Part shown: positions 1,604 through 16,071 of the stretch, in pieces
How the letters are laid out: each line of letters begins with the position of its first letter
Position numbering within the stretch: the stretch's first letter is position 1
Source: a virus
Taxonomy: Duplodnaviria > Caudoviricetes
DNA length: 25,951 bases
IMG/VR virus record: IMGVR_UViG_3300006752_000188
Location: 1 to 25,951 of that record
Direction: 5' to 3' (one strand)
Translations under genes and position numbers: made by a program
Notes under the pieces: model-generated
Told to the model about the DNA's origin: nothing
Database searches by the model: none
What the model saw: the letters and a program-made list of their open reading frames with translations, nothing else

Positions 1604-1650
1604 TACTTAAAATTGGACGACAGAAAAAACTTTGTACGTCCATAAAGTAC

Positions 1651-1770
1651 TACTTAAAGTTACTTAAAGTACTTAATAACTATTAATATATAAGAGATAA
1701 TAGGAAACTTAAGGGTACTTTAAGTAACTTAAAGTAACTTAAAGTTACACAGAGGTTACTTTAAGTATAA
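1651..1770. repeat. ACTTWAAGT quasi-palindromic repeat cluster, locus 1
   Basis: Copies start at 1652, 1662, 1717, 1727, 1737 and 1758, in 10-bp phase within groups, separated by a very AT-rich spacer (about 1671-1705). Confidence 0.9.
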
Positions 1771-1778
1771 TTACATTA

Positions 1779-1811
1779 AGTATTATATAATACTCTGTGC
1801 CCCGCCGTCAA
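1779..1811 (-). promoter_or_regulatory. Sigma70-type promoter with a 16-bp palindrome over its -10 box
   Basis: Minus strand TTGACG (1811-1806), N18, TATAAT (1787-1782). AGTATTATATAATACT (1779-1794) is a perfect palindrome. Confidence 0.65.
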
Positions 1812-1850
1812 GGGGTAGACAAAAATATTTTTATTTTTATTGATTTTTTA

Positions 1851-1893
1851 TTTGTGATCACAAAATATAATGGATAACACGATGTGATCACAT
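1851..1893. promoter_or_regulatory. Two TGTGATCACA palindromes 30 bp apart (operator-like)
   Basis: TTTGTGATCACAAA (1851-1864) and ATGTGATCACAT (1882-1893), both perfect palindromes. Confidence 0.6.
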
Positions 1894-2126
1894 AAAAGTG
1901 CGACAATTTGACCAGAACTAAAAAATCCCATCTCTGTCATTGGGCATATATACTATCTACGCACACCCCCCTGCCCCATACCCCCCGTAACATATTCAAG
2001 ATCGTGAATACTATCAGACATATTCAAGAATTTGAATGTGTTCGTATATCAACGTATTCTTATATATGGATGTATTATACAATATATGATTATATATGAA
2101 TATGTGAATGTGTTATACTGTAACAT

Positions 2127-2249
2127 TTAACTGACCGGGCGTTCAATTAACTCGGGCAAGTACCACTCACCACCACACACCGCAACACATTCAGATATTC
2201 GCATATGTAAATGTATACCCCCACCTTAATTGAACAAGCGTTCATTTAA
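2127..2249. promoter_or_regulatory. Two copies of a 24-bp imperfect palindrome (operator-like)
   Basis: TTAACTGACCGGGCGTTCAATTAA (2127-2150) and TTAATTGAACAAGCGTTCATTTAA (2226-2249). Confidence 0.55.
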
Positions 2250-2376
2250 TATATATCCGGTCGCATTGCCTCATAACGAGAACAAAACGTGAAACATGCC
2301 TGACACTCAATGTAAGCCCCTTACAAGCCCGAAAGAGGTTTTAGGGTATATTGACCCATAAAAACCCTATTCCCTG

Positions 2377-2428
2377 CAACTTATTGTTTTTGTTCTGTTT
2401 ATTTATTTATAGATATAAACAATTGATT
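2377..2428 (-). promoter_or_regulatory. Two IHF-consensus sites
   Basis: Minus strand AATCAATTGTTTA (2428-2416) is a perfect WATCAAN4TTR match; AAACAATAAGTTG (2389-2377) has one mismatch. The context is AT-rich, so chance matches are possible. Confidence 0.45.
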
Positions 2429-2591
2429 TAATTAACAAATAAATAAAAATGCAATAAAACGACAATAAATATACCAATTGTCGCAAAAGAGACATGAACA
2501 GTCGCAAACAGAATATAAAGCTACCTCAATACCCTGTTTAAGTCTCTTATAGGCCACGCCTATGCGTTATTTGACATTTTTGAGTTGCCAC

Positions 2592-3060
2592 GGTTTTCGG
2601 TCAATATTCCACTCGGAATTGCGGCCACCCTTAAAACCAAGTCTATATTCCTCAGTCAGTGGGAATACAGGGGCAATTCAATCCATACTCGGTAAACTGA
2701 CAACTGGTATGACAAGCCGGTTCAACCGATACCCGCCCAATGACTTAGGCAATAGCTCATTCAATCTGCGTGACTTCAAATAGAAGTAGTCCAGAAAAAT
2801 CGAAAGAGGTTTTGAGATTGCCAATCATAGTCAGAGGGCCATGGGGGAAAGGGTTGCGGGTAGCAAATGCAAAACCCGAAATGCAAAAGGTAACAGTCCT
2901 GATATGCAATGCGGTATGAATTGAGGTTCATATCAAGTGGCATATCCATTCAATCCTATTGATACGGGTTGAGTGATAGGGATAAACGCCACAAGGATAA
3001 CAATTCATAGGCCATTGCAATTGCTTTGGCCTATTGGTGGTTATCTTGTAACCGAAAACC
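2592..3060 (+). ncRNA. Candidate large structured RNA or highly structured 5' leader (~470 nt)
   Basis: 10-bp perfect closing pair GGTTTTCGGT (2592-2601) / ACCGAAAACC (3051-3060) enclosing many nested stems, some with G-U pairs on the + strand. No convincing ORF. Confidence 0.6.
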
Positions 3061-3083
3061 CCAAACAAAAAGGATATGGGAAA

Positions 3084-3548
3084 ATGAAAAATATCGTAAC
3101 AACTTTCAATCGTTCACTTGGCAATGGCGCAGCAATGGGCAAGGCTTTCAAAGAGGCAATAGACCATGTAATTGCAGAACGTGACACAACTGTAATTGTG
3201 AAGCTGATAAACGCCTGCAAAGCTAAGGGTGACACTCAGGCCGAAAGAGCAATTCGGGTGACGTTTGCAGCAATCTTTGACGGCTCAAAAGTGACAAAAA
3301 CAAAAACGGGTGGAGTAGCAATTAAGATTAAGGATGCCACCCTGAGCAATGCTGCGGTTGATACCCTTGCAAATTTAGTGGGTGATGAAACTTCCATGCG
3401 TGGTGCGAATTGGGCCAAGGCTTTTGCAGGCGATAAGGCTGAGGCTGAGTTGGATTATATCAAAGCTGCCACCAATTTGCTGAAACGTGGTTTCGACCCA
3501 GTCGCATTGATTGCAGCAATTCAACAACAGGCAAAACAGGCGGCATAA
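3084..3548 (+). CDS. First early protein, hypothetical (154 aa, Ala/Lys-rich, helical)
   Basis: ATG 3084 (MKNIVTTF...) with AAAGGA upstream; the ORF-track extension to 2973 runs through RNA hairpins. Followed by a terminator. Confidence 0.8.
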   Translation: MKNIVTTFNRSLGNGAAMGKAFKEAIDHVIAERDTTVIVKLINACKAKGDTQAERAIRVTFAAIFDGSKVTKTKTGGVAIKIKDATLSNAAVDTLANLVGDETSMRGANWAKAFAGDKAEAELDYIKAATNLLKRGFDPVALIAAIQQQAKQAA

Positions 3549-3580
3549 ACTATCATACAAATAAAAATAGATAAAACCTG

Positions 3581-3613
3581 AGCACCTCATGTTAACGCAT
3601 GGGGTGTTTTATT
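3581..3613 (+). terminator. Rho-independent terminator
   Basis: AGCACCTCATG-ttaacg-CATGGGGTGTT stem (2 G-U pairs) ending in a T-rich tract. Confidence 0.75.
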
Positions 3614-3639
3614 GTGTCTATTTAACAGGAGGTTATGAC

Positions 3640-4304: not shown

Positions 4305-4802
4305 ATGGGTAATTCAGTATATACAAGTGAGTTCAAAGCAGAGGTTGTGGAGTATTACAAAACTCACACTGCCAAGGAAACTGCGGAGAAGTTTTCTGTC
4401 CAAACATACACTGTCGAGTGGTTTGGCAAAAGTGCAGGACTTGCCAAGGGTAATGACAAGTACCCTGTCGATTTCAAGCACGAGGCTTGCCAATTCTATG
4501 AAACACACACGGGCAATGAAACTCTCGCCAAGTTTGGAATTACTATAGCAGCATTGTGTAAGTGGCGCAAAGAGCTTGGATATCGTAACAAGCATCGTGG
4601 GTATAACTTGTACACTGAGGCTCTCCAGCCCACTGTAACAAAACGTGAACGCCGTAACTTTGTGATGACTCGTTCAGAGAATGGGCAACTCAAAGCTGAG
4701 TTACAGCAACGTGACGAACGTATCACGTCATTAGAGGAACGCCTAACTCAACTCGAAGGCACATCAACTATCATATCCCAACTAAAACAATTACTTAACT
4801 AG
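4305..4802 (+). CDS. Tandem helix-turn-helix protein with C-terminal coiled coil
   Basis: AGGAGG RBS. Two ~47-aa repeats (YTSEFKAEVVEYY..TAKETAEKFSV..VEWF and YPVDFKHEACQFY..TGNETLAKFGI..LCKWR) resemble transposase OrfA-type HTHs; heptad Leu pattern at the C-terminus. Confidence 0.75.
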   Translation: MGNSVYTSEFKAEVVEYYKTHTAKETAEKFSVQTYTVEWFGKSAGLAKGNDKYPVDFKHEACQFYETHTGNETLAKFGITIAALCKWRKELGYRNKHRGYNLYTEALQPTVTKRERRNFVMTRSENGQLKAELQQRDERITSLEERLTQLEGTSTIISQLKQLLN

Positions 4803-7896: not shown

Positions 7897-7900
7897 ATAT

Positions 7901-7967
7901 TACTTAAAGTAACTTAAAGTTACTGTAATAATTATTATTATAGTAATAATAGATACTTTAAGTATAA
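7901..7967. repeat. ACTTWAAGT repeat cluster, locus 2
   Basis: Copies at 7902, 7912 and 7955 around an almost purely A/T spacer. Confidence 0.88.
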
Positions 7968-7978
7968 CTATAGGTTCA

Positions 7979-8055
7979 CCATCCTTAGCTCAACTGGATA
8001 GAGCAACTGCCTTCTAAGCAGTAGGTTGCAGGTTCGAGTCCTGCAGGGTGGGCCA
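7979..8055 (+). tRNA. tRNA-Arg (UCU)
   Basis: Full cloverleaf: acceptor CCATCCT/AGGGTGG, D arm GCTC/GAGC with A20, anticodon arm ACTGC-CTTCTAA-GCAGT, T arm GCAGG-TTCGAGT-CCTGC, discriminator G, encoded CCA. Confidence 0.97.
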
Positions 8056-8071
8056 ATCTATGGAGGCTAAC

Positions 8072-8119
8072 ATGGACGATCCACATGACGATTGTACACA
8101 CTGGTTAGGAAAGTTATGA
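8072..8119 (+). CDS. Putative 15-aa leader peptide MDDPHDDCTHWLGKL coupled to the integrase
   Basis: GGAGG (8062-8066) 5 nt before ATG 8072; its TGA overlaps the integrase ATG (ATGA 8116-8119). Confidence 0.5.
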   Translation: MDDPHDDCTHWLGKL

Positions 8120-9000
8120 GATTTAGAACAGCAGTAGATGAATACCTACACACACGTCAATTTGCATCGCTGGCCGCATCCTCTCAAAAAGGCTACGAGT
8201 CAGCACTACATTCTTTCTGTCGCATGTCCGTAGGTGGAAGAACTCTGGGTAATATCTCCATCAAGAATCTTAACGTCCCACTTTGCACGGAGATTTACGA
8301 TACGTGGGAGATGGAGACATCTACATCCAACGCAAACCACAAGGCACGTATATTCTCTGTCCTGATGAATTATCTAATCACGATGGAAAAGATGCCCACC
8401 AACCCTATGTCACGAGTACGCAAACGTACAAGTGAGCCACGTTCAGTTATCTGGACACACGATCAAGTACTATCATGCCTCGACGCAGCATTCCAAAACT
8501 TTGACTGGAGAAACCTGGGTTTGATTATCTTGATGTGTTATGAGTGGGGGCAGAGGCCCATAGACATACGCAACTTGCAATGGGATCAAGTTGACCTTGA
8601 GAGTGAGGTAGTGACAATCACTCAAAGCAAACGAGGTGCAACTGTTGAGCTACCTATTCCAGACAACTTACTCACCATGCTCAAACAGCAGAAAGAGGAC
8701 TGGGACTTCCAGCCCTACGTAGTACCTCACCACAGGCCGCAGGACAGTGCCTACAGGCCTCTAACGATTGTCCAGATGACAACACTGCTCACAGACGTTA
8801 AGGCTGCTGCAGGGCTTCCTGATGACCTCCGAGTGGGTGACCTTAGAAAGACCGCCATTGTGCAGATGATCGAGAGCGGTGTAGACCACCTTGCAATTCA
8901 ATCCGTATCAGGTCATAAGCATGTACAAAGTCTAAACCCGTACAACAAGTTTAGTTTAAAAACCGCAAAGTCTGCATTGGATAGGAGACAAAGAGTATGA
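8116..9000 (+). CDS. Tyrosine recombinase/integrase
   Basis: Core-binding domain, then GQRPIDIRNL (Arg I), TQSK (Lys), GDLRKT (Arg II, His replaced by Gly), SGHK and NPY (catalytic Tyr). Confidence 0.9.
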   Translation: MRFRTAVDEYLHTRQFASLAASSQKGYESALHSFCRMSVGGRTLGNISIKNLNVPLCTEIYDTWEMETSTSNANHKARIFSVLMNYLITMEKMPTNPMSRVRKRTSEPRSVIWTHDQVLSCLDAAFQNFDWRNLGLIILMCYEWGQRPIDIRNLQWDQVDLESEVVTITQSKRGATVELPIPDNLLTMLKQQKEDWDFQPYVVPHHRPQDSAYRPLTIVQMTTLLTDVKAAAGLPDDLRVGDLRKTAIVQMIESGVDHLAIQSVSGHKHVQSLNPYNKFSLKTAKSALDRRQRV

Positions 9001-10504: not shown

Positions 10505-10641
10505 TACCTGTAGGTCAACTAAGATTGCTACTCACTAAGGCGGGACTAGAGTACGTCATAACTCGTGTTGAGGGTAACATAGCACACGTCAACATTCTTG
10601 TAGCGGAGCAACCAGATGTACACAGTAGAACTGGAATATGA
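10501..10641 (+). CDS. Small hypothetical protein (46 aa; not in ORF track)
   Basis: MIPVGQLRLLLTKAGLEYVITRVEGNIAHVNILVAEQPDVHSRTGI; GAGGAG RBS and ATGA overlap. Confidence 0.65.
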   Translation: MIPVGQLRLLLTKAGLEYVITRVEGNIAHVNILVAEQPDVHSRTGI

Positions 10642-10858
10642 TTATGCCCTTATTAGAACACTTGACGAGGAGGACAGACACGAGGATGTTGAAGTTGTGA
10701 TAGGGGAGGGCGGAGAGGTTTTTATACTTCAGTATAACGAATCTCGCCAAAGAAATTCTGTCATAGCTATGTCTTTACAACAGCTCGTAGATCTGTATGC
10801 TGCAATGGATAGCCCAGAAGGGCTTTTTCAACTGGAGGTCAAACGTGGCAAACAATGA
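10616..10858 (+). CDS. Hypothetical protein (80 aa)
   Basis: GGAG RBS; packed between neighbours. Confidence 0.7.
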   Translation: MYTVELEYDYALIRTLDEEDRHEDVEVVIGEGGEVFILQYNESRQRNSVIAMSLQQLVDLYAAMDSPEGLFQLEVKRGKQ

Positions 10859-14882: not shown

Positions 14883-15737
14883 ATGAAAAAGATTGAGACA
14901 TTAGTAGAAGACCTAGAGTCCGTTCTCTACGGCCTTGGTGGATGGAACGGTACGATAGGATCAATGTTAGGTAATAACATTGCAGATTCTGCCAACAAAA
15001 GATTTAGCAAACCGCAAGAGCCTCGGGGATACCTATCTCTGTCGTCTATCGGTACTCCGTGCAAACGTAAGTTATGGTACAAAGTTAATAAGCCTGGAAC
15101 TGGAGAGCCACTGAGTGCTAACCTACTTCTCAGGTTTTTTTACGGTGACATGATTGAAGAATTAATCCTATCAATGGTTGTTGCTTCTGGTCATAGTATG
15201 GAAGGTTCTCAAGATAGACTTACTGTACATGGTATCCGTGGTCACCGTGACTGTGTTATTGACGGAATGACTGTAGATGTTAAGTCCTGCAGCCCATTCG
15301 CATTCAAGAAGTTTAAAGAGGGCAAGCTCCGAGATAATGACGCTTTCGGCTACATTAGTCAGCTAAGTTCTTATGTATATGCAGGTAAAGATGATCCGTT
15401 AGTTACAAATAAAACACATGGTGCATTTCTTGCTGTTGACAAAGTTAGCGGTGAGATTTGCTTGGACGTACATGACTTTACAGAAGACCTTAAGACCAAA
15501 GAACAGGAGATGCTTGCAGCTAAAGAGATGGTTGCTGGTGATTTACCTGCAGATCGTATCCAACCTGTGCCTGCAAGTAAGGCAAGTCCTAATACCAAGT
15601 TAGATAAGTCCTGCCAGTTTTGTGAGTATAAGAAAATATGCTGGCCTAATCTTAGAATGTTTAAGTATTCATATGGTACTGAGTACTTAGTGCACGTAGA
15701 GAAAGAGCCAAAGGTTGATGAGGTCTTCAATGACTAA
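14883..15737 (+). CDS. PD-(D/E)xK (Cas4/RecB-like) exonuclease
   Basis: SSIG.PC.R.LWY, GH.D.......DVKS, Y..QL..Y and C-terminal CQFCEYKKIC. Confidence 0.85.
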   Translation: MKKIETLVEDLESVLYGLGGWNGTIGSMLGNNIADSANKRFSKPQEPRGYLSLSSIGTPCKRKLWYKVNKPGTGEPLSANLLLRFFYGDMIEELILSMVVASGHSMEGSQDRLTVHGIRGHRDCVIDGMTVDVKSCSPFAFKKFKEGKLRDNDAFGYISQLSSYVYAGKDDPLVTNKTHGAFLAVDKVSGEICLDVHDFTEDLKTKEQEMLAAKEMVAGDLPADRIQPVPASKASPNTKLDKSCQFCEYKKICWPNLRMFKYSYGTEYLVHVEKEPKVDEVFND

Positions 15738-16071
15738 AGCAGCTAAGGCTAAGGGCAGAACTGGCCAACAAGAAATCAGGGACAAGCTCTTAGAAACATT
15801 TCCAGAGTTTGAACCTGATGACATCAAGTCTACAACTATGGGTGATACCGGAGAAGATATCCAGCTATCACCTGCAGCTAGGAAGAAGCTACCTATTACT
15901 GTAGAGGTAAAACGCAGGAAGTCTGGCATGAAGATGGCTTACGACTACATTGAGCAAGCTAGAAAACATGGTAAAGGTGAGCCAGTTGTATTCTTCAGGG
16001 CAGATAGAAAGGAGTGGATTACGATGGTAAGTCTGGATCATTACATGGAGTTGTTGAAAAAATGGAAGTAA
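15730..16071 (+). CDS. Putative Holliday junction resolvase / PD-(D/E)xK endonuclease
   Basis: AKAKGR..Q, GEDI, VEVK and EPVVFFR motifs. Confidence 0.7.
   Translation: MTKAAKAKGRTGQQEIRDKLLETFPEFEPDDIKSTTMGDTGEDIQLSPAARKKLPITVEVKRRKSGMKMAYDYIEQARKHGKGEPVVFFRADRKEWITMVSLDHYMELLKKWK

Follow-up and report, generated by a model that had tools for sequence, protein, structure and literature searches.

The window analysed here is a viral contig of 25,951 nt, about 46% complete, whose DNA polymerase is best matched by that of Roseobacter phage CRP-6 (55%) and next by those of Zobellviridae-type podophages. Two divergent arms are separated by an ORF-poor gap (1644-3083), which at about 1.4 kb exceeds the 470 nt of non-coding sequence originally described. 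The leftward arm carries an endolysin, and the rightward arm carries small ORFs, a peptidase, a tRNA-Arg, an integrase and replication genes, some of these labels being a reading of the translations. A comparable layout, with two arms transcribed in opposite directions and short terminal repeats, is described for cobaviruses in the accessible part of PMC6775973. The part of the window discussed below is presumably the early region and the host presumably a roseobacter.

Several other features of the window may be recorded. A tRNA-Arg(UCU) lies immediately ahead of a tyrosine integrase (7979-9000), a pair that suggests a temperate lifestyle; ARAGORN detects this single tRNA in the window (7979-8055), in contrast to the cultivated cobaviruses, which the accessible part of PMC6775973 reports to be without tRNAs. 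Similar units of nested-palindrome, AT-rich sequence occur at 1680-1775, within the inter-arm gap, and at 7899-7975, before the tRNA-Arg and integrase. The ORF at 4305-4802 weakly matches helix-turn-helix proteins and has a coiled coil at its C terminus; it is a possible early transcription regulator. A short direct repeat at 2480-2510 (two copies, 22 nt apart), possibly operator sites, is kept upstream of the leader in close relatives, and other relatives have palindromes in its slot.

At the right-hand end of the gap lies an element with a conserved core of about 420 nt (2578-2992, + strand), the parts of which are listed in Table 1. Its 5' boundary had been placed at 2592, and is now found earlier, at about 2565-2580.

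Table 1. Parts of the RNA and its immediate surroundings, in window coordinates
Feature	Position	Strand	Remarks
Small leader hairpin (boxB-like position)	2549-2563	+	just before boxA; sequence varies between relatives
boxA-like motif	2565-2576	+	as in host rRNA leaders
5' junction	2580-2681	+	P1 2580-89/2672-81, P2 2592-97/2633-38, P3 2642-52/2661-71
Pseudoknot	2655-2701	+	P3 loop 2655-60 pairs with 2696-2701, after conserved GUAAA linker
P4 hairpin	2702-2722	+	88% paired; U-R-R-Y-A loop
P5 long-range helix	2723-27/2852-56	+	98% paired; encloses variable long arm 2732-2847
P7 hairpin	2857-2878	+	mutual information and A5 pairing
Conserved 3' domain	2889-2990	+	P8-P12 and conserved internal loop; model R1
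P8	2889-91/2988-90	+	96% paired
P9	2897-2900/2979-82	+	80% paired
P10	2901-07/2940-46	+	96% paired; 26 double changes, 1 break on tree
P11	2913-20/2927-34	+	96% paired
P12	2947-56/2966-75	+	74% paired
Long interrupted hairpin, predicted RNase III-type site	2991-3050	+	between RNA and ribosome-binding site
ORF, 154-aa basic, mostly helical protein	3084-3548	+	first sizeable ORF of rightward arm
Second long hairpin, terminator-like or RNase III-like	3565-3623	+	after ORF 3084-3548

Searches with the protein of ORF 3084-3548 gave 75 close homologues, and the surrounding DNA provided 112 loci, which include duplicate contigs and the window's own contig. Using an iterated nucleotide profile, the RNA was found upstream of the ORF 3084 homologue in 90 of these loci, 75 of which extend to the RNA 5' end. 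Copies less than 96% identical to each other were counted as distinct, which leaves 54, with 44-89% identity to the window; 48 of them make up the alignment A5. The core varies from 350 to 502 nt, with large insertions confined to the peripheral arms and a widely varying length of the long arm inside P5. Stop-free runs in the core are short and not the same in the 12 copies examined, with no conserved reading frame. Domains reassort: 18 pairs of copies share a 3' domain at 90% identity or more while their 5' domains are less than 55% identical, and in five locus pairs the proteins are at least 90% identical, yet the 3' RNA domains are only 64-74% identical. Where the RNA was located by motif and downstream DNA could be inspected, an ORF 3084 homologue came next in six of six loci, four of them contigs new to the protein searches (five HMM-confirmed, L123 by reading); two further motif-found loci, L116 and L008, end too early to show the downstream gene. 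The stretch is carried by dozens of related marine phages, just ahead of what would be their first-made gene.

Towards the margins of the family, the RNA becomes difficult to detect. Members of the divergent group L087, L089 and L091 are scored weakly by model R1 and the HMM, and L026-L032, L105, L290, L297 and L298 are undetected by both. The distant loci L290, L297 and L298 have boxA about 480 nt ahead of the gene, and in L297 and L298, which neither model scores, the P4 loop, P5 and junction motifs can be recognised by eye in the same order. As a separate observation, the same slot in L026-L032, some 350-400 nt ahead of the ORF 3084 homologue, holds a covarying structure of different appearance, without evident boxA and with a short motif in common with the P5/P6 junction. 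Outside these loci, no real BLAST match to the RNA was obtained among the cultured phages available for comparison (queries: the window and L022), neither the RNA nor the boxA pattern was found in CRP-6, and the RNA model matched none of 151 genomes of the family of G001, a roseobacter family. A motif scan of genome contigs, covering 11 of 64 parts with a pattern that was too loose, gave no good match among 120 loci.

Folding energy provides a first indication of structure. The interval 2592-3060 folds better than its shuffles, in agreement with the original prediction, with z-scores of -6.7 on the + strand and -5.4 on the - strand. When the 240-nt windows, 108 in all with 12 shuffles each, are ranked, those covering the element come second and fourth, with coding windows ahead of or beside them. 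The coding windows 15601-15840 and 10561-10800 have z-scores of -6.3 and -4.7, from only 12 shuffles. Since some coding windows fold as well, relatives are needed to decide. Helices were picked by mutual information on 53 copies. In A5, the 92 pairs are 79.0% paired, compared with 65.3% in shuffles and 31-44% with slid partners. Double-sided changes number 653 against 253 in shuffles, and 0 of 500 shuffles scored as high, although the structure was derived from the same sequences, a bias in its favour; the 5' domain is poorly aligned in A5 (47-76% paired). Mapped on a tree built from the 3' part, P4 has 31 double changes and P5 has 16, both counts being inflated by recombination; P10 has 26, P11 9, P7 8, P9 5 and P8 2, and slid-partner controls on the same tree give 0-2.

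The covariation bears out the earlier view of a multi-domain phage RNA on the + strand, and 2578-2992 is almost certainly a conserved structured RNA. Part of the fold itself required revision. All the complementarities listed originally can be read in the sequence, and relatives support 2646-51/2662-67, the long arm 2735-2839, 2773-77/2783-87, 2857-61/2874-78, 2947-56/2966-75 and the 2991-3050 hairpin. Four inner helices, 2616-22/2673-79, 2706-10/2729-33, 2900-06/2929-35 and 2937-41/2988-92, do not hold as conserved structure: jointly they are 57.8% paired against 56.5% in shuffles, their covariation score is reached by 80 of 500 shuffles, and the last two show no double changes and 12 breaks each on the tree. 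The pseudoknot, the boxA-like motif and the long-range pairings P5 and P8-P10 had also gone unnoticed.

The 10-bp helix that was thought to close the structure (2592-2601/3051-3060) is not family-wide: it is perfect in three of 52 copies (the window, L054 and L061, among which one change is compensatory) and reaches 8 bp or more in six of 52. Its end-to-end helix length is on average slightly above shuffles (5.98 vs 5.54 +/- 0.12), and true 5'/3' pairs have a duplex energy of -17.0, compared with -16.3 +/- 0.5 when partners are swapped. In close relatives its 5' arm pairs locally with 2633-38, in P2, and the closing helix would be at most a subclade alternative to P2. Such an alternative next to the ribosome-binding site, found in one subclade only, raises the question whether the RNA is a leader that controls ORF 3084 in a riboswitch-like or autoregulatory way, by exchange of the local P2 for the 2592/3060 helix, and it is indeed always the same gene that the RNA precedes. 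However, the two arms of the switch helix reassort independently with a duplex energy no better than that of swapped partners, no helix over the ribosome-binding site appeared family-wide among relatives, no Rfam riboswitch matches, and a terminator-like or processing hairpin stands between RNA and gene. We consider such a leader unlikely.

Within the 5' part, the pseudoknot was examined by an alignment-free test. Pairing of 6 bp or more is found in 48 of 52 copies, whereas swapped strands give a mean of 18.5 copies and a maximum of 27, one more copy having no anchor and three being mis-anchored by the search pattern; with Watson-Crick pairs only, the count is 35 copies against 3.2. The loop of P4 is U-R-R-Y-A in 45 of 48 copies, which we take to be T-loop-like. 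What could point to a ribozyme, such as one with a group I-like core in rearranged form, is the segment 2886-2899, which in our view resembles the group I S element consensus and has a near-exact S match in L022, along with the presence of the pseudoknot and conserved internal loops. Nevertheless, C2898 pairs downstream with 2981 and varies among C-G, G-C and U-A, unlike the invariant G-site pair of the group I P7; no exon or splice junction is apparent, and no Rfam intron matches at E <= 5 in the window or E <= 2 in 16 relatives. A catalytic role of this kind appears improbable.

The strand preference also deserves mention. Among relatives, G-U cells number 176 and A-C cells 23, an excess which indicates that it is the + strand that folds, as RNA, as had been proposed from the G-U pairs of the window. 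This bias, the pseudoknot, the presumably T-loop-like loop and the RNA-level boxA motif leave very little room for a structure of single-stranded DNA that would serve genome entry or replication near the end of the genome. Such a structure would suit the location in the ORF-poor inter-arm gap, where cobaviruses have their terminal repeats according to the accessible part of PMC6775973.

The best-conserved 5' element, for which a -35 box was considered and rejected, is the boxA-like motif, present in 47 of 52 phage loci and, as a pattern, twice on the + strand of the window. Of 20 16S loci from the family of G001, 16 carry the same pattern at a distance of 228-299 nt ahead of the 16S gene, the four misses having only 231-270 nt of upstream DNA, and the 16S leader of L260 matches the phage consensus. 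It shares with rrn-type boxA both its identity with the host rRNA-leader motif and its place after a small hairpin; this likeness points to an early-transcription signal likely copied from host rRNA genes. As evidence on the host it is weak, since boxA is similar across bacteria. The accessible parts of PMC13753749 and PMC8632103 describe boxA as the site at which NusB-NusE is loaded and from which the complex for antitermination and folding of rRNA nucleates. The + strand just upstream shows no consensus sigma-70 promoter.

One to three boxA-like motifs also occur in six of nine other Zobellviridae-type early regions that do not match the RNA, which suggests, from the motifs, a family-wide use of host rRNA antitermination; boxA therefore need not serve the RNA. 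These motifs lie near the first early gene in CW02 (L286), T5S1 (L287), 1.253.O (L289), IME234 (L284), Pecta (L282) and CVT22 (L281), and repeated ones are about 210-270 nt apart. In CVT22, a non-coding gap after the first early gene (L281:46035-46500, - strand) contains a boxA motif and folds with a z-score of -3.3. Vibrio phage PS32B.1 (L285:2350-3225) and T4S1 (L288:2326-3360) have a second unannotated stretch of about 0.9 kb after the first early gene, with several common motifs, no Rfam match and weak folding scores.

Downstream of the RNA, the ORF is flanked by strong hairpins. One of -20 kcal/mol or below is found upstream of the ORF in 47 of 51 loci, compared with 0 of 51 coding controls, and downstream in 43 of 47; it is free energy that separates these hairpins from coding controls, as base-pair counts fail to do so (medians 26, 25 and 22). 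The divergent L086, L087, L089 and L091 group has a hairpin and a U-tract between RNA and gene. T7 early mRNA has an early-region layout with RNase III-type sites, and by analogy the flanking hairpins are likely RNase III-type processing sites.

The protein encoded by ORF 3084 has no PHROG, Pfam or clear PDB match, and its model is folded and helical (pLDDT 90.6). The net charge is +4 to +17 in all 45 of the family proteins considered, and the relatives form 197 protein clusters. Fold searches returned generic helical matches only (Z <= 7.3) and weak viral ones (best E 0.003), and the ESM Atlas only unnamed clusters. No real BLAST match was found in the cultured phages available for comparison (queries: the window and P0070), nor any match of the protein profile over 401 genomes of the family of G001. 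A link to the CVT22-type first gene was discarded, as hhalign was not significant; a broad profile reached E-values of 9e-4 (CW02) and 0.04 (IME234) among 591 frames, to be taken as a lead only.

Metatranscriptomes offer limited information on expression. Small shares of the stretch are contained in sixteen RNA runs, and the eight examined are all contigs of relatives at low depth. In X1, X2 and X7 the flanks are covered too; X3, X8, X13 and X18 have pieces only inside 2557-2996, and as these runs were chosen by that stretch, gaps outside it prove nothing. The contigs are compatible with transcription of the RNA region, DNA carry-over being possible.

Considering these features together, we favour, with a probability of roughly 50%, a stand-alone non-coding RNA that arises as infection starts, by cleavage of the first early transcript, for which we infer promoter, Nus loading, cleavage, partner and target. 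By its position, the RNA would be made right after injection, as the original prediction held. Host RNA polymerase would likely start just upstream. At the boxA-like motif, the complex that prevents termination in host rRNA operons would be loaded, and this complex may shield the untranslated RNA from Rho and aid its folding. Cleavage within the 2991-3050 hairpin, probably by RNase III, would next release an RNA of about 450-500 nt from the ORF 3084 mRNA. The freed RNA would most likely serve the early takeover of the host as a compact scaffold or a decoy, and the basic ORF 3084 protein may bind it. The lack of a consensus sigma-70 promoter, the boxA motifs of phages that do not match the RNA, and the occurrence of near-identical proteins next to fairly different 3' domains count against this reading.

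The fixed position ahead of one gene fits a cis role equally well. In the N/nut-like or put/EAR-like form of such a role, the RNA would remain attached to the host polymerase during elongation, together with boxA and perhaps the product of ORF 3084, so that the early arm is read through terminators such as 3580-3609. The order of promoter, boxA, RNA, hairpin, first gene and terminator-like hairpin resembles the lambda N operon, whose layout is comparable, and both the strict position and the boxA motifs in early regions of other family members agree with it. Precedents for RNA-based antiterminators are put and EAR, as given in the accessible part of PMC8632103; however, put is there about 65 nt, against a core of 350-502 nt with variable arms. 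Moreover, related phages transcribe the early arm with boxA and without this RNA, and the folded, helical model of the ORF 3084 protein is unlike the elongated lambda N. This antiterminator deserves serious attention as a possibility, but it is a clearly less probable one than the stand-alone RNA.

Pursuing the stand-alone RNA further, one may tentatively envisage a new class of phage ribonucleoprotein: an rRNA-style transcript would come first in infection, be folded by the antitermination machinery hijacked from host rRNA synthesis, gain its release through RNase III and associate with the first early protein to take over host transcription or translation; the family would span the 197 protein clusters, with divergent RNA forms in the same slot. 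To our knowledge, large structured RNAs of bacteria and phages are few, and several have proved to act as ribozymes, guides or RNA cages. As there are 54 distinct copies, a fold backed by covariation, a transcription signal likely taken from the host and only one candidate partner, the structure and function of this RNA are directly testable, and the finding points to boxA use in early regions across a whole phage family.

As for known families, Rfam 15 has no match within 2560-3090 at E <= 5, and in 16 relatives the RNA likewise has no hit at E <= 2, as the original prediction anticipated; the families covered include GOLLD, ROOL, OLE, HEARO, tmRNA, RNase P, 6S, SRP and riboswitches. No description of the RNA was found in the accessible literature, mostly outside subscription journals and including the available part of bioRxiv 10.64898/2026.09.22.753630. 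The accessible part of PMC10690425 lists IMG/VR candidates of 29-151 nt, among which pieces of the RNA could be present; three of its supplements, as far as available, gave no RNA motif match.

Among known systems, the rRNA operon leader (boxB-boxA) also has a hairpin followed by a boxA-like 12-mer, as described in the accessible parts of PMC13753749 and PMC8632103; here, however, a phage RNA follows instead of rRNA, and no leader-trailer helix is family-wide. HK022 put, B. subtilis EAR and lambda nut/N similarly have an RNA element that leads an early operon and is followed by terminator-like hairpins, but this RNA is much larger than put (~65 nt) and pseudoknotted, its hairpin precedes boxA as in rrn and unlike nut, and the ORF 3084 protein, in contrast to lambda N, is predicted to be folded and is without a detected family. 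The OLE and HEARO ribonucleoproteins share the combination of a large RNA with an adjacent candidate protein partner, although neither an Rfam match nor a Pfam, PHROG or clear PDB match of the neighbour protein connects them with this locus. GOLLD and ROOL are, in the accessible part of PMC12286853, likewise large, ornate, phage-encoded and of unknown function, and GOLLD has a conserved 3' and a variable 5' region to which those of this RNA may be likened. The core described here is shorter (350-502 nt, against 659 nt for ROOL env-120 and more than 800 nt for many GOLLD), has no tRNA island next to it in the window, where the one tRNA is 5 kb away, and is tied to one protein gene and led by boxA. 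By model, size and context it is not a member of either, and it is kin in kind to the GOLLD/ROOL-type large phage RNAs.
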